Positions 5,757 to 39,107 of a stretch of 40,475 nt of DNA are shown here, piece by piece; position 1 is the first letter of the stretch; each line of letters starts with the position of its first letter. The stretch lies in IMG/VR virus record IMGVR_UViG_2660237933_000004. The stretch is one strand, 5' to 3'. The notes under the pieces are model-generated. The model saw nothing but the letters and a program-made list of their open reading frames with translations, was not told where the DNA came from and made no database searches. The translations under genes were made by a program, and so were the position numbers. This DNA is from a virus. Lineage: Duplodnaviria; Heunggongvirae; Uroviricota; Caudoviricetes.

Positions 5757-7087
5757 TGCACTGGCACCTTCAGAGGGATCACCGGCACAAAGCCGGGATG
5801 CGTAATGGCATTACGCCGGATAATGTCCGCGTCACGCGCCGCGTTATCAAACCAGGTCGCCGCCAGCACCAGCGCGGGTAAGACCTCATCCGGCGTGCGC
5901 CGAATGATCCGTGCAGACTGTTCAAGGCGCGTGTTGATATCCGCATTCAGATCTGCTTTCACCCGGCGCAGTGCCAGAAACAGCGCATCACTGGTTGTAC
6001 GGGACAACTCCTTATCAATTGCCGTATTCAGTGTGTCGCGAATGTCAGTCAGCTCTTCCCACGTTGGCAGGTCAACCGTGTTTTTCACCGCCGGTGCATT
6101 GTTCAGTGCCGGATGCGTGACAGAAGGCCAGCCAGTGCTCTGCGCGGGTGTTGTTGCCTGCCCCACTGCGGAATTCTGCATCACCTCGGAAGTTGTTGGC
6201 GCAGGCAATCGGGTGACGGCATACGCCGCTTCGCTGATTGCGGTCGTACGAAGGGTGCTGGCAACCACGTTACGCTGCTGCGTCGCCGTGGCGGTGGTTT
6301 TACTGTCCGTTTTCCAGACGCCGCGCGGTTGCAGATCGCTGCCGAGGCTGACACCGGAAAGCGTTTTGATCATGGTGACCAGGTCGCTGGCGTTACCATA
6401 AAGGCGTTTCCCGGTACGCCACATTTTCTGCACCTGCTCAACGAAATTTTTGCCTGACGATGGCGGCGGCAGAAGTACCGAGATATCCCCCTGCAACAGC
6501 CTGGCGGCATCCGATACGGCAGAATCCACCACTTTCATCGCATCAGAAACATACCCCAGCATTATGCTGGCATTATCGATAACGTCGTTCTGCACGAAAT
6601 CCGCCACACCATCGATACTGAAACCGCTGAAGCTGTCACTGATGCAGTCATCCAGTGCAGAACAGGATGACATCAGCGTCTGCGCCGTCGCCGCACCTGA
6701 TGTGGGGTAAGAGAGTTCTCCTGCTTCGACAAACTTCAGGTCAAAGCGGACAATACGCCCTTCACTTTTCGATGTGCTGACCCGAACTTCCCCGTCAACA
6801 CAGACTTTCAGCTCACCATATGTCGGGTGGACAAGCGTGCCGGGACCGGGTTTATTCAGCGCTTCAATCAGGCGATCGCGCTGGTCAAAGCAGTCATCTC
6901 CCACCACATAAGCTGTGATGGACGGGCGGAAAGTGACTTTTCCCAGATCTTCGGTATAGGGCTTGTCGCGGTTCGGGTATTCATGTGTTTCCACACGGCG
7001 ACCGGTTCCCGCACTTTCTTCTTCAACCTTAAACGGCACACCTCGAAATGACGCATCCTGAAGCCTGTCTTTCCACGTCATATACAC
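5753..7087 (-). CDS. Tail protein (Mu gpN DNA circularization protein-like)
   Basis: 444 aa; N-terminal region looked Mu N-like from memory; downstream of tape measure. Confidence 0.5.
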   Translation of the reverse strand: MYMTWKDRLQDASFRGVPFKVEEESAGTGRRVETHEYPNRDKPYTEDLGKVTFRPSITAYVVGDDCFDQRDRLIEALNKPGPGTLVHPTYGELKVCVDGEVRVSTSKSEGRIVRFDLKFVEAGELSYPTSGAATAQTLMSSCSALDDCISDSFSGFSIDGVADFVQNDVIDNASIMLGYVSDAMKVVDSAVSDAARLLQGDISVLLPPPSSGKNFVEQVQKMWRTGKRLYGNASDLVTMIKTLSGVSLGSDLQPRGVWKTDSKTTATATQQRNVVASTLRTTAISEAAYAVTRLPAPTTSEVMQNSAVGQATTPAQSTGWPSVTHPALNNAPAVKNTVDLPTWEELTDIRDTLNTAIDKELSRTTSDALFLALRRVKADLNADINTRLEQSARIIRRTPDEVLPALVLAATWFDNAARDADIIRRNAITHPGFVPVIPLKVPVQ

Positions 7088-23682: not shown

Positions 23683-24372
23683 TTAATCCAGTTTTGCAAT
23701 ACTTTGCTGTGAAAATGTGGTCTTTTGTTTTGAACGTGTTCTCGTTACAAGCAATAAAGCTTCGCTATCAAGCTGTAGAAAAATGTGCTTCATTGCAACC
23801 CAGCGTTCAGTGAATGTCTCAGACCAGTTTTTTGATGTCACTCCCACCAGTGATGCCAGTTCCCGGTATTCATAAGTCTCACGCCCAGCCAGCTCGCTCT
23901 TCACATCCTGTGCTGCCAGCCAGATCAACTTCTTTAAGCGTTCCAGTGTCTTACTGGCAATTTTTCTTGTACCTAACAGAGCCTTAAACTCGTTCCATGC
24001 CCACTGCGTTATGGCAACCTGATGCTCCCAGCGAACACTTTCGCTGTAACTCCACAGCAACCACGCTTTCTGATGTTCATCGAGAGACAGAACCGCGCGG
24101 CGCCATGACGAGGTTGAGAACTCAACCTGGCTGACCAGTGCAATGGATGAACCTTTTGCGTACGACTGCTTACCGGAAATCGGCGGATTATCCAGCGTAA
24201 TCATCCTGCCAGTTACCTCATCCAGAATGCGCGGCTTCTTTCGTTTGTATGTACCAGTATCAAATTGTGCATGCTCCAGACAGGCTTCAAGCTGGCCTTT
24301 CGTTGCTCCGCTCAAATCAGCGGTAGCCACAATGAGTTGCTCGCGGACATACTGTAAATATTGGGTATTCAT
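23683..24372 (-). CDS. Putative late-gene antiterminator (Q-like), by position
   Basis: 229 aa ORF immediately after rusA/ylcG and before the lysis cassette; not lambda Q-like in sequence. Confidence 0.4.
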   Translation of the reverse strand: MNTQYLQYVREQLIVATADLSGATKGQLEACLEHAQFDTGTYKRKKPRILDEVTGRMITLDNPPISGKQSYAKGSSIALVSQVEFSTSSWRRAVLSLDEHQKAWLLWSYSESVRWEHQVAITQWAWNEFKALLGTRKIASKTLERLKKLIWLAAQDVKSELAGRETYEYRELASLVGVTSKNWSETFTERWVAMKHIFLQLDSEALLLVTRTRSKQKTTFSQQSIAKLD

Positions 24373-26274: not shown

Positions 26275-27801
26275 TCAAAAATAAACCTCACCATCAACCA
26301 TATATTTGAGAGTACTTATCGCCTGCTGGGCGGATATTGTTTTCATTAAAGGATAGTGTTTAAAAACAATGCCATTCATAAAATAGATATCACAGGTTTT
26401 ATTATCTGTATTGATTATGATTTTTTCGAATGTTTTATAGGCAAGTGTACGACATAGCTCTCGCCCATTTTTACTGGTTAAGTCAATAGCATGAAAATCA
26501 CCAAGTGAACTCACCGCTTTACTCTTCAAAGTTTTTAATGATACAGAAGCCCTTCGTAATTCCTTATCTAATACTCTGATTTTTTCTGCTATAGCGGTAA
26601 CTTCAGGCGCAACAGATAATGCAGCAATTAAATTATTAATTTTCATCTGGAGCTCAATAATTTTCAACTCTAAAGTTTCATTAGCATCTTTCTTGTTTTC
26701 AACTGGTTGGATTTTACTACAATTAAAAAGCAACTCATTAATGATATTATAATCAACCAAATCTCTCTTTATTGATGGCCTGTCACATCGATGCAGTCTT
26801 CTCATCGGACAAACATAATAGCCATGCAAACTTCCAGATACCGCATGAACAATCATGGTATTACCACAAGCCTCGCACTTCATAACTGTTCGAAGTAGAT
26901 TTATCAACATAGGATTTTTGCTACTATTGCTAATACCAAAAGGTGCCAACCGAATTTCCTGCACAGCGTAAAACAAATCATCTGATATGACTCTGGGATA
27001 ATAGCCAGCGATTTCACTTATTCCTTTACCTCTTGCACGATATGAAGGTACGCATATACCTATCAGAGCTTTATTCGCTAATAATTTTTCAATTACAGAA
27101 GGCCCCCATGCACTTTCTTTGCCTGAGAAATTTTTTACAGCATGATCATTTAAATACTTGGCTATTGCATTCAATGATCGCCTTTCCATCCTGAGTTTAA
27201 AAATTAGCTCAATCGTTTTCACCCTGTCGGGGTCTGGAATAAAAGCTGTTCTTTTGTCATCCAATGAGAGCCATCTCGGACAAGACGCCGTCATAATCGT
27301 GCCTGACTCCAGTGCATCCTGCCGTTTTTTCTTCCATGATAATTTAACCCGACTTGACTTTATCTCGCTTTCTTCATTTGCCCTTTGTGCTATAAGTATG
27401 GCTTTTATTAATGAATATGGATCATTCAAAGAGTCAATATTATAGACTGTATTATCGCAAAGAGTTATAACATCAATACCGTGATTCAAAATCAATTTCA
27501 GACGCTCAATCGCTTCACCGACTTTTTCTCTTGAAAGTCTGTCCAAACTTTCAACTAACAATGTAGTTCCTGGCAATATATAACCATGCTCTATAGCATC
27601 TAAAAATTCCGAAAAAGCTCCTGATTGTGCATGCTTTCCTTTGAATGCACTTAATCCTAAATCTTCATATGTTATGGTATCAAGATAATAATCACTATTT
27701 ACCTTTAACCATTCAGCAATAAGTCTTCTCTGTCGGTTTAATGAGTCGCCAGACATCTGACCTGGTGATGAAAATCGCATATATGCTATGGCTTTTTTCA
27801 T
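26275..27801 (-). CDS. ybcK: Large serine recombinase (YbcK-like)
   Basis: 508 aa; N-terminal resolvase motif YMRFSSPGQ...SLNRQ, Cys-rich zinc-ribbon region (CEACG...CPMRRLHRC); AT-rich. Confidence 0.8.
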   Translation of the reverse strand: MKKAIAYMRFSSPGQMSGDSLNRQRRLIAEWLKVNSDYYLDTITYEDLGLSAFKGKHAQSGAFSEFLDAIEHGYILPGTTLLVESLDRLSREKVGEAIERLKLILNHGIDVITLCDNTVYNIDSLNDPYSLIKAILIAQRANEESEIKSSRVKLSWKKKRQDALESGTIMTASCPRWLSLDDKRTAFIPDPDRVKTIELIFKLRMERRSLNAIAKYLNDHAVKNFSGKESAWGPSVIEKLLANKALIGICVPSYRARGKGISEIAGYYPRVISDDLFYAVQEIRLAPFGISNSSKNPMLINLLRTVMKCEACGNTMIVHAVSGSLHGYYVCPMRRLHRCDRPSIKRDLVDYNIINELLFNCSKIQPVENKKDANETLELKIIELQMKINNLIAALSVAPEVTAIAEKIRVLDKELRRASVSLKTLKSKAVSSLGDFHAIDLTSKNGRELCRTLAYKTFEKIIINTDNKTCDIYFMNGIVFKHYPLMKTISAQQAISTLKYMVDGEVYF

Positions 27802-28057
27802 GGTGACACCTGCTAACGTATGCTTTTATAAACCTTAGTGGTGAGATATAATTTTTGTTTAATTTTTATTTAAAAAGACAATTAAGGTCACATTATCTTG
27901 AATATACAACAATAATCGTATTGCAATTTTCTTACGCCATAATCTTGAAAGCACAAAAGAATACATAAAAAAATAAAGACATTAACAAAAAGCATAAAAC
28001 GAGGCTCATATAAATATAAGAGCCTCCATATTTTAGTCGTTTAGAAACAAATTATTT

Positions 28058-28390
28058 TTAATGTGGTGTGCTTCGTGACAATAAATTAATAACCAACACT
28101 CCGGCACAAATCAACATCATGCCTATAATGGCTGGCATGTCCAGCCGTTGGCCGAAAAATCCCCATGACAGTAAGCTAATCAGGACAATACCGACTCCTG
28201 ACCAGATAGCATAAGCAATCCCTGTAGGAATATAAGCCAGCGTCTGCGCTAATAACCAGAATGATGCACAATAACAAATAATTGTACCAACAGATGGCCA
28301 TAACCGTGTAAAACCTTCTGAAAACTTCATTAAGGTTGTACCAATGACCTCTGCAAGTATTGCACCACCAAGATAAATATAAGGGTTCAT
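28058..28390 (-). CDS. emrE: Small multidrug resistance efflux protein EmrE
   Basis: 110 aa from MNPYIYLGGAILAEVIGTTLMKFSEGF; four TM helices; matches E. coli EmrE from memory. Confidence 0.85.
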   Translation of the reverse strand: MNPYIYLGGAILAEVIGTTLMKFSEGFTRLWPSVGTIICYCASFWLLAQTLAYIPTGIAYAIWSGVGIVLISLLSWGFFGQRLDMPAIIGMMLICAGVLVINLLSRSTPH

Positions 28391-28457
28391 AGCATATTCT
28401 TTCCTGTTCAAACTGGAGAGAATTGTACTACAGTTTGAACTCAACTCACCTGTTTCA

Positions 28458-30470: not shown

Positions 30471-31010
30471 TCATATTGCCCCCAGCATGGTGGTGACCAT
30501 CGCCATCAATGGACCAGCCAGATCCGGGTCCACTCGAAACATCGACACAATGCCTTCACTCATCTCCTTCAGTTTCTGGTGGCGTGGTGCGTTGAGAATG
30601 ACAGCCTGTTTTGCCTCACTGAGTTCCTTTTCCATTTCAGCCAACCTAGCCATAAAGCTATCCTGCTCAACCAGGTAACCGCGATATTCCAGCGGTAGTA
30701 CCGCCAGAATTGCCGGGGTCAGTTCACGCACGTTATTTCGGTATTTTTCAGAATCGAATTTGTTATCGAGGAAGCGGAACAGCTTCTGGCGTGCACGGCT
30801 GACATCATCAGGGAAATCGATGGTGCCGCCGCCCTGCTCCCGATACTCATTCACAATGAGTGCGGCAACAACATCCTGATTATCTGCAGCCGACCAGGCG
30901 CGGACGGCATCACGGATTTTTTCGTGGCCTGGAGCTTGTTTTGTTTGAGAACGATTTATCACCGCAGTCGGGCTAAATCCGCTAGTCTGTTGGTATGTAA
31001 GTGGTTGCAT
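30471..31010 (-). CDS. YdaT-like protein in cII position
   Basis: 179 aa; EYREQGGG and TPAILAVLP segments resemble Rac YdaT from memory; follows a Cro/YdaS-type regulator. Confidence 0.45.
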   Translation of the reverse strand: MQPLTYQQTSGFSPTAVINRSQTKQAPGHEKIRDAVRAWSAADNQDVVAALIVNEYREQGGGTIDFPDDVSRARQKLFRFLDNKFDSEKYRNNVRELTPAILAVLPLEYRGYLVEQDSFMARLAEMEKELSEAKQAVILNAPRHQKLKEMSEGIVSMFRVDPDLAGPLMAMVTTMLGAI

Positions 31011-31079
31011 AATTGACTCCTTTAGTTTGAATTGACTGTTAAGTTGATTGCTTATTGTTAAAGAGCGTGAAATGGAAAT

Positions 31080-31310
31080 TTAAGCTGCGTTCTTTTCGGT
31101 GTGTGGAAACAACTTCGGAAGATCCGGGCGAATCTGGTATGCCTTCACTACTCCACCAGTAGCCGTAACAATGCTGCCGACATGTTCAGGGGATACCTTT
31201 GCTTTGTTGTGAAGCCACTTATAGACGGCCTGCTGTGAAACTTCGCAGGCAGCGCCCAGTTTCTTTTGTGAACCAACGATATTGATCGCTGTTTTGATAG
31301 CTGGGTTCAT
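31080..31310 (-). CDS. cro: Cro-like repressor (YdaS-type HTH)
   Basis: 76 aa; helix-turn-helix (QKKLGAACEVSQQAVYKW); divergent from cI across a 104-bp operator region. Confidence 0.65.
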   Translation of the reverse strand: MNPAIKTAINIVGSQKKLGAACEVSQQAVYKWLHNKAKVSPEHVGSIVTATGGVVKAYQIRPDLPKLFPHTEKNAA

Positions 31311-31350
31311 AACAACCTCCGTGGTTAATTTGAATCAAGATTAAAACTGT

Positions 31351-31371
31351 GGTTGTTTTTAGTCAACAACC
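31351..31371. promoter_or_regulatory. Candidate OR operator palindrome
   Basis: GGTTGTT-TTTAGTC-AACAACC perfect 7-bp inverted repeat between cro and cI; the same GTTGTT/AACAAC hexamers recur at the pL region. Confidence 0.35.
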
Positions 31372-31414
31372 ATTTTCGTTTGATGGAATAAAACCTTGGT
31401 TGTACATTTGGACT

Positions 31415-32104
31415 ATGAAAACAACACTCTCAGAAAGACTTAAAGAAGCCAGATTAGCGCGAGGCCTTACACAAAAGGCGCTTGGGGATTTGGTCGGGGT
31501 TAGCCAAGCTGCTATTCAGAAAATCGAAACAGGGAAAGCTAACCAAACAACTAAAATCGTGGAGATCGCGAACGCTTTGGGTGTGCGCGCAGAATGGTTA
31601 TCTTCTGGCGTTGGAAATATGTCAGACAGTACAGTGCAACCAATACCATCAACTGTCAGCCATTCCAAATACTTTAAGATTGACGTTCTTGATATAGAAG
31701 TGAGTGCCGGGCCGGGAGTCATCAACCGTGAGTTTGTAGAAGTTCTACGCTCGGTTGAGTACTCGTTTGACGATGCTCGTCACATGTTCGATGGTAGGAA
31801 GGCAGAAAATATCCGCATCATTAACGTACGCGGTGACAGCATGTCAGGAACGATCGAACCAGGTGATCTGCTGTTCGTTGATATCACGGTTAAATCTTTC
31901 GACGGTGATGGTATCTATGCGTTTCTGTATGACGACACCGCCCATGTAAAGCGCCTGCAAATGATGAAGGATAAGCTACTGGTTATCTCTGATAACAAGA
32001 GCTACTCGCCGTGGGACCCAATTGAGAAAGACGAGATGAACCGGGTATTCATCTTCGGTAAGGTTATTGGGAGCATGCCGCAGACATACAGGAAGCATGG
32101 GTAA
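31415..32104 (+). CDS. cI: CI-type prophage repressor (HTH plus S24 LexA-like autopeptidase domain)
   Basis: 229 aa from MKTTLSERLKEARLARGLTQKALGD; C-terminal GDSMSGTIEPGDLLFVD Ser nucleophile motif and a downstream Lys. Confidence 0.85.
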   Translation: MKTTLSERLKEARLARGLTQKALGDLVGVSQAAIQKIETGKANQTTKIVEIANALGVRAEWLSSGVGNMSDSTVQPIPSTVSHSKYFKIDVLDIEVSAGPGVINREFVEVLRSVEYSFDDARHMFDGRKAENIRIINVRGDSMSGTIEPGDLLFVDITVKSFDGDGIYAFLYDDTAHVKRLQMMKDKLLVISDNKSYSPWDPIEKDEMNRVFIFGKVIGSMPQTYRKHG

Positions 32105-32183: not shown

Positions 32184-33029
32184 ATGAAGCTTAACTTTTA
32201 TGCCGTATACATTCAAAATACTAGCTCTCTGAAAAAACAACCTATAGATTTATTGTCATTTCTGACAGAGCAGGTAATAAACGCTAAGAATCATGCTCAG
32301 CAGATTGAAGACTACTATGTTTTTGCACATCATATAATTAATGATAGTTTTATCCTGACAAAAACATTTGATTCAGAACTAGTTAAAAAAATCAATAGAA
32401 AAACACTTTCGGTTGATGAAATAAGAAATGCGCTTAGTTCAGATGAGTCATTAGGATTCCCATCATTTTTATTAATAAGAAAAAATATTATCGGATATGC
32501 AAATACATTATTCGGCCCAAAAACTCGTGATCTTGCAGCTTACCTAAAAGGAAAGGGAGCAATACCTGATGGATACTCACTATTCATAGAACCTTTGATG
32601 AGAGATATAACAAAGGATGATGCTTTAAGCATGCAGTTTATAGGAAGAACAACGGTAAGGGTTGAAAATGGGTCAAAACTTCTCAGCCCCCTACTTAGAG
32701 TGCTTGGTGCACAAGCAGTTGACGAAGAGCTCTTAGAAGGACTGGAAATAACCGTGAAGCCTAAACGTTTACGAAATATAAAATCTGTTGCCAAAGGGAT
32801 TATTAGCAATGTGGATGAACAACATGAGAGCATTCACCTGAAGGGTAAAGAACAAGCTGCAGATATTCTTACAGAATATTATCTTTCTGACAAAGGCCAC
32901 ATTGGAGCAAATATCTATAAATCATCGAATGAAGACATAGCATCCGAAATGTCAACTTGCTATCTCAGGATGAAATTGATTATAATGGAAAGTTATAATA
33001 GAACATTTGGAGATGAGTTACCACTATAA
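32184..33029 (+). CDS. rexA: RexA-like abortive-infection protein
   Basis: 281 aa directly downstream of cI; conserved segments ESLGFPSF, IEPLMR..TKDD, FIGRTTVRVE, ILTEYYLSDKGH match lambda RexA from memory; AT-rich. Confidence 0.7.
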   Translation: MKLNFYAVYIQNTSSLKKQPIDLLSFLTEQVINAKNHAQQIEDYYVFAHHIINDSFILTKTFDSELVKKINRKTLSVDEIRNALSSDESLGFPSFLLIRKNIIGYANTLFGPKTRDLAAYLKGKGAIPDGYSLFIEPLMRDITKDDALSMQFIGRTTVRVENGSKLLSPLLRVLGAQAVDEELLEGLEITVKPKRLRNIKSVAKGIISNVDEQHESIHLKGKEQAADILTEYYLSDKGHIGANIYKSSNEDIASEMSTCYLRMKLIIMESYNRTFGDELPL

Positions 33030-33031
33030 TA

Positions 33032-33487
33032 TTGGGGGGCTATATGAAGTCACGGCACAGGATAGCGCCAGCAATAATACTTTTTCTTTTGCCATTCCCA
33101 ATTATTATAAGTGCGTATTATCTAATCCGCCACATGTTTCCGGGTATGGCTTTTAGCGAGCACAGAGATGCGCTGGGTGGCGCTATTGCCGCTTATTCTG
33201 GTACTACAATTGCGATACTTATAGCCGCTTTAACATTTCTGATGGGGCTGGGAGGCAGGAATATTCGCAAATTGAAAACATATGGCTATATGACATCAAT
33301 CATAATCATGTATGGATTAACTTTTTGCGAGCTAGGAGTACTTTTCTTTAATGGCTTGTTTTTACTTGCAACAAGTAAAAATCCTATACTAATGCTACCA
33401 TCAATCGCTATTGGTTTATCAGGTACGTCACTAATCCATATTGGCATGCTCCTGATGCAATTACTTAATCTGTCAAAACATAAGTAA
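33032..33487 (+). CDS. rexB: RexB-like membrane protein
   Basis: 151 aa, four hydrophobic helices; FSEHRDALG...TIAILIAALTFL...YGYMTS closely matches lambda RexB from memory. Confidence 0.7.
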   Translation: MGGYMKSRHRIAPAIILFLLPFPIIISAYYLIRHMFPGMAFSEHRDALGGAIAAYSGTTIAILIAALTFLMGLGGRNIRKLKTYGYMTSIIIMYGLTFCELGVLFFNGLFLLATSKNPILMLPSIAIGLSGTSLIHIGMLLMQLLNLSKHK

Positions 33488-33512
33488 CCCGGCCTTGCCG
33501 GGTTTTCTTTTG
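33487..33512 (+). terminator. Intrinsic terminator after rexB
   Basis: ACCCGGC-CTTG-CCGGGT hairpin followed by TTTTCTTTT directly after the rexB stop codon. Confidence 0.6.
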
Positions 33513-33638
33513 CCTCCCCTCATCACACAAACCGTTCGAAAAACCACCATAACCCCCGCTTCAGTTATCGCTATGCGATGCAAGTCACAAAATAAATCCA
33601 TCCTAAATACAACCAGTTATATCTAAAACAACCAATAA

Positions 33639-33681
33639 AACAACTTTTGTTGTTGACGATAAAACAACTATAGTTTTAAAT
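33639..33681 (+). promoter_or_regulatory. Candidate pL promoter with overlapping operator
   Basis: 16-bp perfect palindrome AACAACTTTTGTTGTT (33639-33654) overlapping TTGACG (33653-33658), 17-bp spacer, TTAAAT (33676-33681). Confidence 0.4.
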
Positions 33682-33879
33682 GAATTCATCGCAACAACAC
33701 AACGATACGGCAATCACCTGATTCACCGTTGCGATGACCGCTTAGATCCGCAGCTTGAATTTCAGCAGGCTCCGGGGAGTGCGAGGGGTGAAGCGGACGC
33801 GTGAACGTCGGTGTGACCAGCTGAAATCAACCCAACTCAACACCTCATACCTCAGTCGCTTCAACGAGGCGGCTTAGTT

Positions 33880-34170
33880 ATGACAACCGGCGGCCATCCA
33901 CCGCCTGAATACGCGCAGAAGTCTCTATATGTTCAGCAGCCCAGCTTACGGGCAGGAGTTTTTATGGTTCATCAACATTACGGAACGCAGACCGTTAATC
34001 GAGGTGCGGTCATGCCAGGAATGCTGGTCAAACACAAAGATGGTACCTGGACTGCATCAGCTAATTTACGCGGACGGCTTTATCTGCATCGCGGCATCGA
34101 GCGCACTTATACCCGTGATTTGCTCGTAGAAGTTTTTCTCGACGGACGCGGTAACGGCCTGAATCACTAA
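33880..34170 (+). CDS. Hypothetical protein in the kil/cIII position (first ORF of the pL operon)
   Basis: 96 aa ORF upstream of gam; no arginine-rich N-type motif; start codon uncertain. Confidence 0.3.
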   Translation: MTTGGHPPPEYAQKSLYVQQPSLRAGVFMVHQHYGTQTVNRGAVMPGMLVKHKDGTWTASANLRGRLYLHRGIERTYTRDLLVEVFLDGRGNGLNH

Positions 34171-34246
34171 CCCCCCTTTCCTGTTTTCCTAATCAGCCTG
34201 GCATTTCGCGGGCGATATTTTCACAGCCATTTTCAGGAGTTCAGCC

Positions 34247-34543
34247 ATGAACGCTTATTACATTCAGGATCGTCTTGAGGCTCAGAGCTGGGCGCGTCAC
34301 TACCAGCAGATCGCCCGTGAAGAGAAAGAGGCAGAACTGGCAGACGACATGGAAAAAGGCCTGCCCCAGCACCTGTTTGAATCGCTATGCATCGATCATT
34401 TGCAACGCCACGGGGCCAGCAAAAAAGCCATTACCCGTGCGTTTGATGACGATGTTGAGTTTCAGGAGCGCATGGCAGAACACATCCGGTACATGGTTGA
34501 AACCATTGCTCACCACCAGGTTGATATTGATTCAGAGGTATAA
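34247..34543 (+). CDS. gam: Gam (RecBCD inhibitor), short form
   Basis: 98 aa, near-identical to the C-terminal 98 residues of lambda Gam; an in-frame stop at 34190 excludes the long form. Confidence 0.9.
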
Positions 34544-34548
34544 AACGG

Positions 34549-35334
34549 ATGAGTACAGCACTCGCAACGCTGGCAGGGAAGCTGGCTGAACGTGTCGGCA
34601 TGGATTCTGTCGACCCACAGGAACTGATCACCACTCTTCGCCAGACAGCATTTAAAGGCGATGCCAGCGATGCGCAGTTCATCGCATTGTTGATCGTCGC
34701 CAACCAGTACGGCCTTAATCCGTGGACGAAAGAAATTTACGCCTTCCCTGATAAGCAGAACGGCATTGTTCCGGTGGTGGGCGTTGATGGCTGGTCCCGC
34801 ATCATCAATGAAAACCAGCAGTTTGATGGCATGGACTTTGAGCAGGACAATGAATCCTGTACATGCCGGATTTACCGCAAGGACCGTAATCATCCGATCT
34901 GCGTTACCGAATGGATGGATGAATGCCGCCGCGAACCATTCAAAACCCGCGAAGGCAGAGAAATCACGGGGCCGTGGCAGTCGCATCCCAAACGGATGTT
35001 ACGGCATAAAGCCATGATTCAGTGTGCCCGTCTGGCCTTCGGATTTGCTGGTATCTATGACAAGGATGAAGCCGAGCGCATTGTCGAAAATACTGCATAC
35101 ACTGCAGAACGTCAGCCAGAACGCGACATCACTCCGGTTAACGATGAAACCATGCAGGAGATTAACACTCTGCTGATCGCCCTGGATAAAACATGGGATG
35201 AAGACTTATTGCCGCTCTGTTCCCAGATATTTCGCCGCGACATTCGCGCATCGTCAGAACTGACACAGGCCGAAGCAGTGAAAGCTCTTGGATTCCTGAA
35301 ACAGAAAGCCACTGAGCAGAAGGTGGCAGCATGA
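34549..35334 (+). CDS. bet: Bet (Red-beta single-strand annealing protein)
   Basis: 261 aa, near-identical to lambda Bet. Confidence 0.9.
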
Positions 35335-36011
35335 TACCGGACATTATCCTGCAGCGTACCGGGATCGACGTGAGAGCTGTCGAACAGGGGGATGATGCAT
35401 GGCACAAATTACGGCTCGGCGTCATCACCGCTTCAGAAGTTCACAACGTGATAGCAAAGCCCCGCTCAGGAAAGAAGTGGCCTGACATGAAAATGTCCTA
35501 CTTCCACACCCTGCTGGCTGAGGTTTGCACCGGTGTGGCTCCGGAAGTTAATGCTAAGGCGCTGGCCTGGGGAAAACAGTACGAGAACGACGCCAGAACC
35601 CTGTTTGAATTCACTTCCGGCGTGAATATTACTGAATCCCCGATCATCTATCGCGACGAAAGTATGCGCACCGCCTGCTCTCCCGATGGTTTATGCAGTG
35701 ACGGCAACGGCCTTGAACTGAAATGCCCGTTTACCTCCCGGGATTTCATGAAATTCCGGCTCGGTGGTTTCGAGGCAATAAAATCGGCTTACATGGCCCA
35801 GGTGCAGTACAGCATGTGGGTGACGCGAAAAGATGCCTGGTACTTTGCCAACTATGACCCGCGCATGAAGCGTGAAGGCCTGCATTATGTCGTGATTGAG
35901 CGGAATGAAAAGTACATGGCGAGTTTTGACGAGATGGTGCCGGAGTTCATCGAAAAAATGGACGAGGCACTGGCTGAAATTGGTTTTGTATTTGGGGAGC
36001 AATGGCGATGA
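35331..36011 (+). CDS. exo: Exo (Red-alpha 5'-3' exonuclease)
   Basis: 226 aa, near-identical to lambda exonuclease. Confidence 0.9.
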
Positions 36012-36166
36012 AGCATCCTCGCGATAATATCCGGGTAGGCGCGATCACTTACATCTACTCCGTTACAAAGCGAGGCTGGGTATTTCCCGGCCTTTCTGTT
36101 ATCAGAAATCCACTGAAAGCACAGCGGCTGGCTGAGGAGATAAATAATAAACGGGGGGCTGTATGA
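36008..36166 (+). CDS. Hypothetical small protein (52 aa), translationally coupled
   Basis: ATG overlaps exo stop (ATGA); stop overlaps the methyltransferase start; manual translation [19 protein letters not shown]... Confidence 0.3.
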
Positions 36167-36720
36167 CTGATTTCACCGGAAGCAATACTCCTGCCGAACA
36201 TCGCGACAGCTGGCGCACACCACCAGAGATTTTTGCTGCGCTTAATGCAGAGTTCGTTTTTCAACTTGATGCTGCAGCCAGCGAAAAAAACCGACTATGT
36301 CGGCTTTTTATCTCACAGGAGCAGAACACATTAACCACTTCATGGCCTGAAGCAATGGGATATGCCTCTGGTTATGTCTGGTTGAATCCACCATACAGCA
36401 ATATTTCCCCTTTTGTGAAAAAGGCAGCCACTGAAAACAAATTCAGTAGTGTGGGATGTGTAATGTTATTGCCTGCTGACACATCTGTCGGATGGTTTCA
36501 TGAAGCGATACAAACCGCCAGTGAGGTCAGATTCATCACGGCAGGACGACTGGCATTTATTAACCCACTCACCGGGAAACCCGTCAGTGGAAATAATAAA
36601 GGCTCGATGCTCATTATCTGGCACCCATACCCCCGTACACACTGCCACTTTACGACCGTTGATCGTGGAGAGTTGATGGCGTTCGGCTCAAGGATTCTTG
36701 CCCGTCGGGAGGCTGCATGA
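36163..36720 (+). CDS. Phage N6-adenine DNA methyltransferase (Dam-like, orphan)
   Basis: 185 aa; NPPY catalytic motif (WLNPPYSNISPF) and WRTPPEIFAALNAEF N-terminal region typical of the phage Dam family. Confidence 0.8.
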   Translation: MTDFTGSNTPAEHRDSWRTPPEIFAALNAEFVFQLDAAASEKNRLCRLFISQEQNTLTTSWPEAMGYASGYVWLNPPYSNISPFVKKAATENKFSSVGCVMLLPADTSVGWFHEAIQTASEVRFITAGRLAFINPLTGKPVSGNNKGSMLIIWHPYPRTHCHFTTVDRGELMAFGSRILARREAA

Positions 36721-36796
36721 CAACCACGGAATGCATTTTTCTGGCAGCGGGCTTCATATTCTGTGTGCTTATGCTTGCCGACATGGGACTTGTTCA

Positions 36797-37012
36797 ATGA
36801 CACCTCAGCAGGAAAACGCCCTTCGCAGCATAGCCCGTCAGGCTAATTCTGAAATCAAAAAAGCCAGACAGCAGTTTCCGGATAAAAACGTCGATGACAT
36901 TTGCCGTAGCGTACTAAAGAAGCACCGCGAAACGGTAACGCTGATGGGATTCACACCGACTCATTTAAGCCTGGCGATCGGCATGTTAAACGGCGTCTTT
37001 AAGGAACGGTGA
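36797..37012 (+). CDS. Hypothetical protein (71 aa)
   Basis: ORF from MTPQQENALRSIARQ; start chosen at internal ATG of a longer track ORF that overlaps the methyltransferase. Confidence 0.3.
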   Translation: MTPQQENALRSIARQANSEIKKARQQFPDKNVDDICRSVLKKHRETVTLMGFTPTHLSLAIGMLNGVFKER

Positions 37013-37110
37013 ACATGAAAAGCAAAATCATCAGGGAGCTACAGGCTCCTTTTTTATTGTTCGCATTCATCCTCAAGCGTATTAACCAACAATTCAGGGA
37101 TTAATGGAAG

Positions 37111-37329
37111 ATGGCAGACATCATTGATTCAGCATCAGAAATCGAAGAATTACAGCGCAATACAGCAATAAAAATGCGTCGTCTGAACCACCTGGCTATA
37201 TCTGCCACTCATTGTTGTAAGTGTGGCGATCCCATAGATGAACGAAGACGCCTGGCTGTTCAGGGTTGTCGGACTTGTGCAAGTTGCCAGGAGGAGATCG
37301 AACTTAAGAACAAACAATGGGGATTGTGA
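37111..37329 (+). CDS. TraR/DksA-family C4 zinc-finger protein
   Basis: 72 aa with CCKCG...CRTCASC four-Cys motif; common in the pL operon of lambdoid phages. Confidence 0.65.
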   Translation: MADIIDSASEIEELQRNTAIKMRRLNHLAISATHCCKCGDPIDERRRLAVQGCRTCASCQEEIELKNKQWGL

Positions 37330-37376
37330 TGGCCTCAAAGCAGCAAATTTCAACATCGTCCAACTGAGGTGTAAAA

Positions 37377-37655
37377 ATGTTCAGAATCATTTTTCCTAAC
37401 ACCTGGTACGTCGACCACCACGGCACTCCCTGCAAAATCCTGCGTTCTACCCACAACAAAGTTCACTACATCCGAAAAGGCAGAACATGTATCGCCAGCA
37501 TGTTCCGCTTTAATCATGACTTTGAACCTGTGAATAAAGCTGATGCAGATCGGATAGCAGAAGAGATCGAAACGGCAGAACACATTAAGAAGTTACGTGA
37601 CATGCGTTCAAAAAGCAGAGGTAACCATGGAATCATACAGCCTCACACTCGATGA
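37377..37655 (+). CDS. Hypothetical protein
   Basis: 92 aa ORF upstream of xis; 3' end overlaps xis start. Confidence 0.3.
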   Translation: MFRIIFPNTWYVDHHGTPCKILRSTHNKVHYIRKGRTCIASMFRFNHDFEPVNKADADRIAEEIETAEHIKKLRDMRSKSRGNHGIIQPHTR

Positions 37656-37977
37656 GGCCTGTCAGTTTCTCAAGATATCCAGACCTACCGCTACCAACTG
37701 GATACGAACAGGCCGCCTACAGGCAACACGCAAAGACCCCACTAAACTAAAATCTCCTTACCTCACAACACGACAAGCCTGCATTGCGGCGCTTCAGTCT
37801 CCGCTGCATACTGTCCAGGTGAGCGCGGGTGATGGCATAACAGAGGAAAGAAAATGTCACTCTTCCGCAGAGGTGAAATATGGTACGCCAGTTTCACATT
37901 GCCGAACGGTAAAAGATTTAAACAGTCTCTTGGAACAAAGGACAAAAGGCAGGCGACAGAGCTCCATGACAAGCTAA
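37627..37977 (+). CDS. xis: Excisionase (P22-type)
   Basis: 116 aa from [31 protein letters not shown] (AlpA/Xis-type HTH); immediately upstream of and overlapping int. Confidence 0.7.
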
Positions 37978-39017
37978 AGGCTGAAGCATGGCGGGTCAGC
38001 AAACTTGGTGAAATACCTGATATGACGTTCGAGGAGGCGTGTATCAGGTGGCTCGAAGAGAAAGCACATAAAAAATCACTGGACGATGACAAAAGCCGGA
38101 TCGGATTCTGGCTTCAACATTTCGCAGGGATGCAACTAAGAGACATCACTGAATCAAAAATTTATTCAGCAATGCAGAAAATGACGAACCGGCGTCATGA
38201 GGAAAACTGGAAACTCAGGGCAGAAGCATGCAGAAAAAAAGGGAAACCTGTTCCAGAATACACGCCAAAACCAGCGTCCGTTGCAACGAAGGCTACGCAT
38301 CTTTCATTTATAAAGGCCCTGCTAAGAGCCGCAGAGCGTGAATGGAAAATGCTGGATAAGGCACCAATTATTAAAGTGCCTCAACCAAAGAATAAACGGA
38401 TCCGCTGGCTGGAGCCCCATGAAGCACAAAGGCTGATTGATGAATGTCCGGAGCCATTAAAGTCTGTTGTTGAATTTGCACTGGCAACAGGCTTAAGACG
38501 CTCGAACATCATCAACCTTGAATGGCAACAAATAGATATGCAGCGCCGGGTGGCATGGATAAACCCGGAAGAGAGTAAATCAAACCGCGCAATTGGCGTT
38601 GCGCTGAATGATACTGCATGTCGCGTATTGAAAAAACAAATCGGGAATCATCACCGTTGGGTATTTGTGTACAAGGAAAGCTGTACCAAACCAGACGGAA
38701 CGAAAGCGCCAACAGTAAGGAAGATGCGGTATGACGCAAACACAGCCTGGAAAGCGGCGCTGAGACGGGCTGGTATTGATGATTTCAGATTTCACGACTT
38801 GAGACACACCTGGGCAAGTTGGCTGGTTCAAGCCGGAGTCCCGTTGTCAGTGTTACAGGAAATGGGAGGCTGGGAGTCTATCGAAATGGTTCGTCGATAT
38901 GCTCACCTTGCACCTAATCACCTTACCGAACACGCACGGCAAATAGACTCGATCCTGAACCCATCGGTCCCAAATTTGTCCCAGTCAAAAAATAAGGAAG
39001 GTACTAATGATGTGTAA
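37854..39017 (+). CDS. int: Tyrosine integrase (P22/SfV-type, thrW-specific)
   Basis: 387 aa; N-terminus [31 protein letters not shown] and catalytic region [10 protein letters not shown]...VRRYAHL; ends 14 bp from the tRNA-Thr 3' end. Confidence 0.9.
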
Positions 39018-39031
39018 CTTATTGATTTAAA

Positions 39032-39107
39032 TGGTGCCGATAATAGGAGTCGAACCTACGACCTTCGCATTACGAATGCGCTGCTCTACCAACTGAGCTA
39101 TATCGGC
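39032..39107 (-). tRNA. thrW: tRNA-Thr (anticodon CGU), thrW-type
   Basis: Minus-strand 76 nt GCCGATATAGCTCAGTTGGTAGAGCAGCGCATTCGTAATGCGAAGGTCGTAGGTTCGACTCCTATTATCGGCACCA; cloverleaf with CGT anticodon; 3' CCA. Confidence 0.9.

Follow-up and report, generated by a model that had tools for sequence, protein, structure and literature searches.

Textbooks describe two ways in which lambdoid phages express their early genes: the N protein of lambda with its nut sites, and the put RNA of HK022, which acts via the zinc-binding domain of the RNA polymerase beta′ subunit. The stretch of DNA considered here, the 40,475-nucleotide virus record IMGVR_UViG_2660237933_000004 (hereafter the window), is a lambda-like prophage in which neither route is found. 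In its left operon, the promoter pL is followed by a leader and then by kil, gam, bet and exo. The leader is composed of a lineage-specific 5′ segment, termed leadA, and a three-hairpin RNA element, termed leadB, which is widespread among lambdoid phages and nearly always lies directly behind an intrinsic terminator. That terminator is missing from the window. The explanation favoured here, which is given about an even chance of being right, is architectural: with no terminator in the way, the proximal genes kil-gam-bet-exo would need no antiterminator. No published account of the leader or of the three-hairpin element was found in the literature searched.

The window shares much of its plan with lambda. 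The cI-rexA-rexB genes stand upstream of pL, the recombination genes follow in the order gam-bet-exo-orf60a, and Q is present for the late genes. Two downstream hairpins are also held in common, as is the first hairpin of leadB (H1) upstream of the cIII/kil block. The window differs from lambda in having no N, nutL, sieB, ral, ea10 or cIII, and no terminator between pL and kil. Its Kil is of the phi80/Rac type (phrog_294) as opposed to lambda Kil, and its pR side carries a boxA without a boxB. In lambda, too, the part of the pL operon from N to cIII contains structured RNAs and terminators, including tL2 and the small RNA PreS, which ends at tL2a, between ral and ea10 (bioRxiv 10.1101/2024.10.31.621285). 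PreS was considered as a counterpart of the leader and rejected, as it occupies a different site and no PreS-like sequence was found in the window.

HK022 and HK639 are likewise lambdoid and N-less, with a cis element immediately past pL. The structure and distribution of put have been described (PMC9378689). The cro gene of the window has 68-75% DNA identity to that of the put phages UPF_BP1 and HK639. However, the window holds no put sequence or structure and no paired left and right copies, and whereas leadB in the put phages is located behind genes and a terminator, no such genes or terminator separate pL from leadB in the window. The phi80/HK225/Rac-type Kil (KilR) has a 68-amino acid Kil domain, and the window protein is 85% identical to HK225 Kil. 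In both HK225 and the window, leadB resides directly upstream of kil, but the kil of HK225 is the fourth or a later gene past pL, behind a terminator, and that of the window is the first. Phage LLS is reported to have no lambda N homologue, and its use of put has only been speculated (Genome Res 2025, PMC12315714). It is thus another N-less lambdoid phage with unexplained early antitermination. It differs from the window in lacking a Rec module and in its left operon.

This N-less, put-less prophage family is very common, yet it retains the recombination genes and terminator hairpins of lambda. At 90% identity or more, leadA is found in 2231 of 5426 complete Escherichia coli genomes (41%), with no annotated gene over it. 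If the architectural explanation is true, genes that are otherwise delayed-early, a toxic division inhibitor among them, have become immediate-early through the loss of a module. Should it prove wrong, an antitermination device would be hidden within 157 nucleotides (nt), where it is easy to test.

Promoter, two-part leader and missing terminator

The elements from the operators to the end of kil are as follows, in coordinates of the window.

33620-33681, + strand: three oL operators (AAAACAAC repeats) and pL, identified by sequence
33688-33844, + strand: leadA, 157 nt, C-rich ends around a G-rich core; no boxA, boxB, put or ops
33845-33963, + strand: leadB, three hairpins ahead of kil, then a Shine–Dalgarno (SD) sequence, AGGAG, at 33954-58
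33846-33882, + strand: leadB hairpin H1, loop UUCAACGAG
33889-33905, + strand: leadB hairpin H2, GGCGG-CCAUCCA-CCGCC
33939-33953, + strand: leadB hairpin H3, GCCC-AGCUUAC-GGGC
33964-34170, + strand: kil, 68 amino acids, in a frame open from 33880 as 96 amino acids

The pL promoter consists of a -35 element, TTGACG (33653-58), a 17-nt spacer and a -10 element, TTAAAT (33676-81), with transcription predicted to start (+1) at about 33688. This layout and the operator repeats are mirrored on the opposite strand at pR/oR (31341-31384), before cro. On the + strand, no terminator-like site is present from 33505 to kil.

Other leadB loci are built differently. A scan of IMG/VR with the most conserved 15-mer of leadB yielded 66 distinct variants. 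The element stands directly behind an intrinsic terminator in 61 of the 66 other variants, with the T-run at most 16 nt upstream, and a hairpin with a T-run also precedes it in HK225, HK639, S9-5, CobraSix and lambda. Farther upstream in such loci there are genes and an N or put module. The homology of the window to these loci begins exactly at CATACC (33846); before it lies the unrelated, C-rich leadA, without a terminator-like site.

The usual lambdoid order is pL, nutL/N or putL, accessory genes, intrinsic terminator, three-hairpin element, cIII/kil and recombination genes. It appears that a segment comprising N/nutL (or put), the first terminator and the accessory genes has been lost from this lineage or exchanged, and that leadA now stands in its place. 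With that segment gone, kil-gam-bet-exo would have no need of antitermination. Once the repressor is gone, RNA polymerase would run unimpeded from +1 through the leader to kil, gam, bet and exo, making these genes immediate-early. Translation of the leader probably starts at a GTG at 33788, and the ribosomes would cover the C-rich tract 33815-33870 and be led towards kil. Kil itself would initiate at its own strong site (AGGAG, ATG 33964) right past H3. The distal genes xis and int would be reached by leakage or from other promoters.

The leadB element is a widespread lambdoid RNA motif that is supported by covariation and is not in Rfam 15. The 5′ part of its consensus comprises (C/G)AUACC, a long, irregular H1 with a hypervariable 5-bp stem and the loop UUYAYNGAG, and GUUAU(G/C). 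The 3′ part comprises H2 (GCGG-CYAUCCA-CCGC), a variable spacer, GAGGUCUUUAACGUUCAGCGGC and H3 (GCSC-GGCUUAA-GSGC). The element ends with GGAG and the start codon of diverse downstream genes. The window copy matches the element profile over all 136 positions (nhmmer E = 3.5e-24). In a 50-sequence alignment, 95.6% of cells are paired, compared with 83% in shuffles and 32-48% when the partner is slid. Cells changed on both sides number 118, compared with 40 after shuffling, and the observed values exceed those of all 500 shuffles. RNAalifold reports nine pairs with compensatory changes, and the outer pair is C..G in 47 of the 66 variants, G..C in 18 and otherwise composed in one. As H2 served as the search key and is invariant in the set, it contributes no covariation evidence. 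The G-U pairs indicate that leadB folds on the pL-sense (+) strand.

The element is found in HK225, HK639, CobraSix and S9-5. In lambda H1 alone is present (CATACC...GTTATG), between the hairpin/T-run after ea10 and cIII. Since leadB coexists with N in lambda and with put in HK639, S9-5 and CobraSix, it is not a substitute for either. Its positions in the compared loci are L006 (4001-4140), L007 (4147-4280), L009 (3871-4003), L010 (2503-2639) and L279 (~6465-6520, - strand).

An earlier note on this DNA had described the first gene as a 96-amino acid open reading frame (ORF) lacking an arginine-rich motif and followed directly by gam. The missing motif and the adjacency of gam stand, but the length does not. 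The 96-amino acid ORF (33880-34170) matches no N-family antiterminator; it is the Kil septation/cell-division inhibitor (phrog_294, E = 1.2e-38), with residues 20-96 aligned to positions 4-80 of the 83 in the profile. Identity to homologues of other genera is 71-87%. The real start of kil is ATG 33964 (Met29 of the ORF), behind the SD sequence AGGAG. The homologues of Enterobacter, Klebsiella, Salmonella and HK225 start at MVHQHYG with unrelated sequence ahead, so that the 28-amino acid extension is not conserved, and the PGAP call for kil is also 68 amino acids. The frame upstream of ATG 33964 is disrupted in 11 of 121 population copies. ATG 33880 forms a paired UAUG at the base of an RNA helix, which is replaced by UAUC in 18 of the 66 variants with a compensating G opposite. 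With the start at 33964, the leader is ~276 nt long.

Longer versions of the protein were rejected. A 136-amino acid fusion of an arginine-rich motif to Kil is annotated in phage Perceval, but its frame carries a TAG in 50 of 121 copies and indels in others. Among 80 protein-database clusters few extend beyond the 96-amino acid form, the usual calls being 96 and 82 amino acids. “Divergent” Kil homologues of 95 amino acids proved to be frameshifted assemblies.

Searches for N, nut, put and ops

Pfam, PHROG or both were searched with every ORF of the pL operon (33755 to 37977) and with the leader peptide in its two versions, at E values up to 10. The positive controls scored as expected, with lambda N matching PF11438 (2.5e-26) and P22 gp24 matching PF25694 (6e-45), and no N-family protein was found among these ORFs and peptides. 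The suggestion that the operon lacks an N antiterminator was therefore borne out. No protein of ~100 amino acids with an N-terminal arginine-rich motif was found either: Kil has none, and the KRTRERR of the leader ORF sits on a peptide of only 20-29 amino acids with a variable tail. The mEpimmI phages, with an N-like Gp17 in the right operon, were set aside as a separate phage group.

The search for nut-like elements was likewise negative in the leader. No boxA occurs between 33680 and 33965 at up to three mismatches, neither CGCTCTTA nor GCTCTTTA is present in the leader, and no boxB was seen there by eye, with no formal model applied.

For put, seven RNAs (HK022 L and R, phiEt88 L and R, S9-5, CobraSix and HK639) were used to build a covariance model. 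The core tested is a two-stem RNA, CGAACGGC...GUCGG...GGCG.GG..AGG..GA..CAAU. An nhmmer profile made from the two HK022 sites, putL and putR, detects put in HK639, phiEt88, CobraSix and S9-5, but returns nothing in the window at E <= 10 with --max. With filters off, the best window match to the covariance model scores 10 bits (E = 0.12) and lies within the tail genes. The proposal of an HK022-type cis-acting RNA thus failed against both forms of comparison. A second copy of any leader segment, as in the L/R pairs of put, was not detected in the window. The best hit was the 15-mer CGCAGCTTRAATTTC (33749-63 and 31075-89), which was considered as a copy of the leader on the pR side and treated as chance (E = 1.5).

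The ops element GGCGGTAGNNTG does not occur on the + strand of the leader at up to two mismatches, and its total in the window equals chance. No Rfam family reaches its gathering score in the leader, and in the whole window only tRNA does so. A match to the ALIL frameshift pseudoknot on the minus strand (33809-33915; 23.9 bits against a gathering score of 50, E = 7e-4) was rejected. It arises from the complements of H1 and H2 and does not represent an insertion sequence (IS) element.

leadA, its reading frame and rival explanations

The leadA segment travels with the operon behind it. Across 120 IMG/VR copies and the related phage and E. coli sequences, this leader is preceded at ~33688 by either of two principal operator types or by one of a few minor types. 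Where the operators belong to the other family, CAATAGCAATAG, nothing upstream of ~33688 is shared with the window, and downstream identity is ~97%. In a few copies the operator-leader junction lies ~35 nt further in. The AAAACAAC operator family and a RexAB cassette, as in the window, were also observed in Klebsiella phage ST101-KPC2phi6.1 (3440-4100), where pL leads to small membrane-protein genes and no N was noticed on reading the sequence.

Searches with nhmmer across 23 kil loci from other genera of enterobacteria and 150 further phage loci returned no homologue of leadA. The idea that it is what is left of an N gene or nutL was rejected, since neither nucleotide nor peptide similarity turned up in those 150 phage loci, the 23 kil loci or the phage collection.

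The leader had been described in the earlier note as long and structured. When compared with dinucleotide shuffles, the whole leader falls within the shuffle range (z = -1.38 for 206 nt, with 18 of 200 shuffles as good; z = -0.70 for 283 nt), and only the 3′ part, 33845-33963, is demonstrably structured. The self-complementary segments that had been quoted do exist, at other positions than the 33753 and 33812 given. An 8-bp complement within 200 nt is close to chance expectation. This pairing contains three rare polymorphisms, of which two permit a wobble pair and the third disrupts its pair; none is compensated, and the pairing is unsupported. RNAalifold on 66 population variants predicts a different hairpin within the short ORF of the leader, where a G/A polymorphism at 33793 retains a pair with U33812, which is weak evidence. 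Variation in leadA is too low for covariation: its three common polymorphisms are pair-compatible but not significant. The features of leadA are as follows.

33756-66 with 33820-27, + strand: quoted complementarity, TGAATTTCAGC with GCTGAAAT
33788-33877, + strand: short leader ORF, GTG start, 29 amino acids in the window: MKRTRERRCDQLKSTQLNTSYLSRFNEAA
33793-33812, + strand: predicted hairpin within the leader ORF, GACG-CGUGAA-CGUC core

The short ORF has an SD sequence, GGAG (33775-78), 9 nt ahead of the GTG at 33788 that opens MKRTRERRCDQLKSTQ. Among 121 copies the start is ATG instead of GTG in 20, and the second codon, AAG, is changed synonymously to AAA in 76. Non-synonymous changes across the first 13 codons are rare (1-3 copies each). 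The C-terminus is variable: in 50 of the 121 copies a TAG at 33853 gives a peptide of 20 amino acids that stops 24 nt short of ATG 33880, and in other copies the frame runs into the 33880 Kil ORF. In five copies including the window, a 5-nt insertion at 33827-33833 shifts the frame to give 29 amino acids, with a TAG 2 nt ahead of ATG 33880. The peptide belongs to no Pfam or PHROG family. It is probably translated. It spans a C-rich, G-poor tract and could plausibly shield the leader from Rho and guide ribosomes to kil. In ST101-KPC2phi6.1, the leader was observed to contain GGGG-GTG-AAG opening a 16-amino acid basic ORF.

Several observations weigh against the architectural explanation. Two terminator-like sites of the lambda type lie downstream of exo, with xis and int beyond them, and are kept in nearly all relatives.

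36072-36094, + strand: hairpin and T-run in the orf60a homologue, identical to that of lambda at ~31.26 kb; kept in 73 of 76 relatives
37033-37051, + strand: second terminator-like hairpin, AGGGAGCT-ACA-GGCTCCTT and TTTTATTGTT, upstream of the traR-like gene, DUF4222, xis and int; also in lambda at ~30.67 kb; kept in 60 of 64 relatives

The lambda counterpart of the first is presumably tL3, and in lambda the N-modified polymerase overrides both sites. Some device for reading through them would make sense in the window too. In addition, leadA starts at +1 and is conserved across operator types, like HK022 putL, and it retains a short ORF with an interchangeable GTG/ATG start.

The best-surviving rival, unlikely on present evidence yet compatible with the architectural explanation, is that the leader controls access to the toxic kil gene and the red genes as an attenuator coupled to translation and dependent on Rho. 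Two C-rich, G-poor tracts would be masked while ribosomes translate the 33788-33877 ORF and the 33880 frame, and poor translation would allow Rho to stop transcription before kil. Such a device would fit the negative GC skew (-0.23 to -0.44) at 33680-33750 and 33800-33870 on either side of the G-rich core, the SD sequence and start-codon polymorphism of the short ORF, and the pairing of GAGG and AUG within H1. It would also suit the position of the stop codon, which in the window is separated from ATG 33880 by 2 nt, and which in relatives is 24 nt short of it or gives way to a frame continuous with it. A rut site or Rho dependence is, however, beyond proof from sequence alone. The coupling is not universal, since the 33880 frame is broken in 11 of 121 copies and the AUG is missing from 18 of 66 leadB variants, and the C-terminus of the peptide is unconstrained.

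An improbable rival is that leadA is a new processive antitermination module, independent of N and put, which serves xis and int. It might act as an RNA on RNA polymerase, through the basic peptide of 20-29 amino acids with its own hairpin, or both. The passage of the 36072 and 37033 sites towards xis and int would be the main argument for such a hidden read-through device, as these hairpins are kept in a lineage without N. That leadA begins at +1 and moves with the operon, not with the immunity region, is also what putL does. By eye, the N-terminus of the peptide, MKRTRERRCDQ, looks like the TRRRERRAEKQ motif of lambda N, and its codons include a hairpin whose loop contains GUGA. However, there is no second copy or analogue on the pR side and no similarity to the put or N families, folding is not above shuffles, and compensatory changes are absent. 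A peptide of 20 amino acids is also without the NusA- and RNA polymerase-binding parts of N.

As for the “non-canonical factor” that had been raised as another option, this short basic ORF would be the sole candidate. Its arginine content is not above background: its four arginines in seven residues fall below the denser runs of ~20 spurious ORFs in the window, and the motif was rejected as evidence of N. The likeness of KRTRERR to the arginine-rich motif of lambda N may be taken as a lead and nothing further. More specifically, the conserved core of leadA (~33722-33830) might be a third solution to early antitermination after N/nut and put, making the pL polymerase resist the 36072 and 37033 terminators; this form of the proposal is, if anything, slightly more doubtful. 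Were it true, a new antitermination device would be present in a prophage family of ~40% of sequenced E. coli.

It is very unlikely that host Nus factors alone account for the arrangement through boxA, as in rrn operons, with pR guarded from Rho and pL doing without. The boxA in question is the following.

31055-31067, - strand: perfect consensus boxA, CGCTCTTTAACAA, 13 nt past the cro stop in the pR transcript

It is the only exact boxA match in the window (an estimated ~0.001 expected by chance), occupies the place of lambda nutR and lies in unstructured RNA. It stands alone, with no boxC and no boxB-like hairpin beside it in the 44 nt up to the next gene, and the pL leader has no boxA. It is confined to relatives of the same immunity type, being absent from Perceval and 4C10; in relatives of the other operator type, the gap between cro and the next gene is 24-30 nt. 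The sequence may still serve Nus factors, or it may be what remains of a nutR in an immunity module whose ancestor carried N.

The weakest rival is that a defective prophage decayed, losing its N region, and that the leader is functionless. In its favour are the 5-nt insertion of the window copy and its extra cargo in the nin region, but it is largely refuted and highly improbable, as the N-less arrangement occurs in the E. coli genomes counted above and in 16 deposited phage genomes, and is therefore not a decay product of the window prophage alone. Among these 16 are Perceval, 4A7 and Lambda_4C10 (genus Bievrevirus) and several PhiR phages, and their records give propagation hosts or environmental sources.

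Prophage setting

The remaining features place the operon within the prophage.

31349-32104, + strand: cI
32184-33487, + strand: RexA and RexB homologues (Pfam 3.8e-59 and 8.3e-41; also PHROG)
33486-33504, + strand: intrinsic terminator closing the cI-rexA-rexB immunity transcript, AACCCGGCCTTGCCGGGTT and TTCTTTTG
31080-31310, - strand: cro, YdaS-type
30471-31010, - strand: “cII”, YdaT-type
23683-24372, - strand: Q antiterminator (PF06323, 1.4e-94)
34247-34543, + strand: gam, also annotated in relatives
34549-35334, + strand: bet, also annotated in relatives
35331-36011, + strand: exo, also annotated in relatives

O, P and ren are also encoded on the - strand. Distal to exo on the + strand are the TraR-like gene, DUF4222, xis and int. 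The int gene (37854-39017) forms the end of the prophage beside a tRNA-Thr (CGU) gene, which is located on the - strand at 39032-39107, 15 nt past the end of int, and is probably the attachment site and prophage boundary.

Additional cargo was observed in the pR operon between ren and ninB (26275-28444, - strand). It includes an SMR/QacE-like gene (28058-28444, - strand), followed by a hairpin and T-run at ~28030-27990, and a 508-amino acid serine recombinase (26275-27801, - strand). Unless polymerase read through this hairpin/T-run, transcription from pR would be stopped short of Q. The interval between cI and pL, a hot spot for accessory or defence functions, also differs in content among relatives: it holds RexAB in the window, a HipA-family kinase with DUF3037 in one relative, and unknown genes elsewhere.

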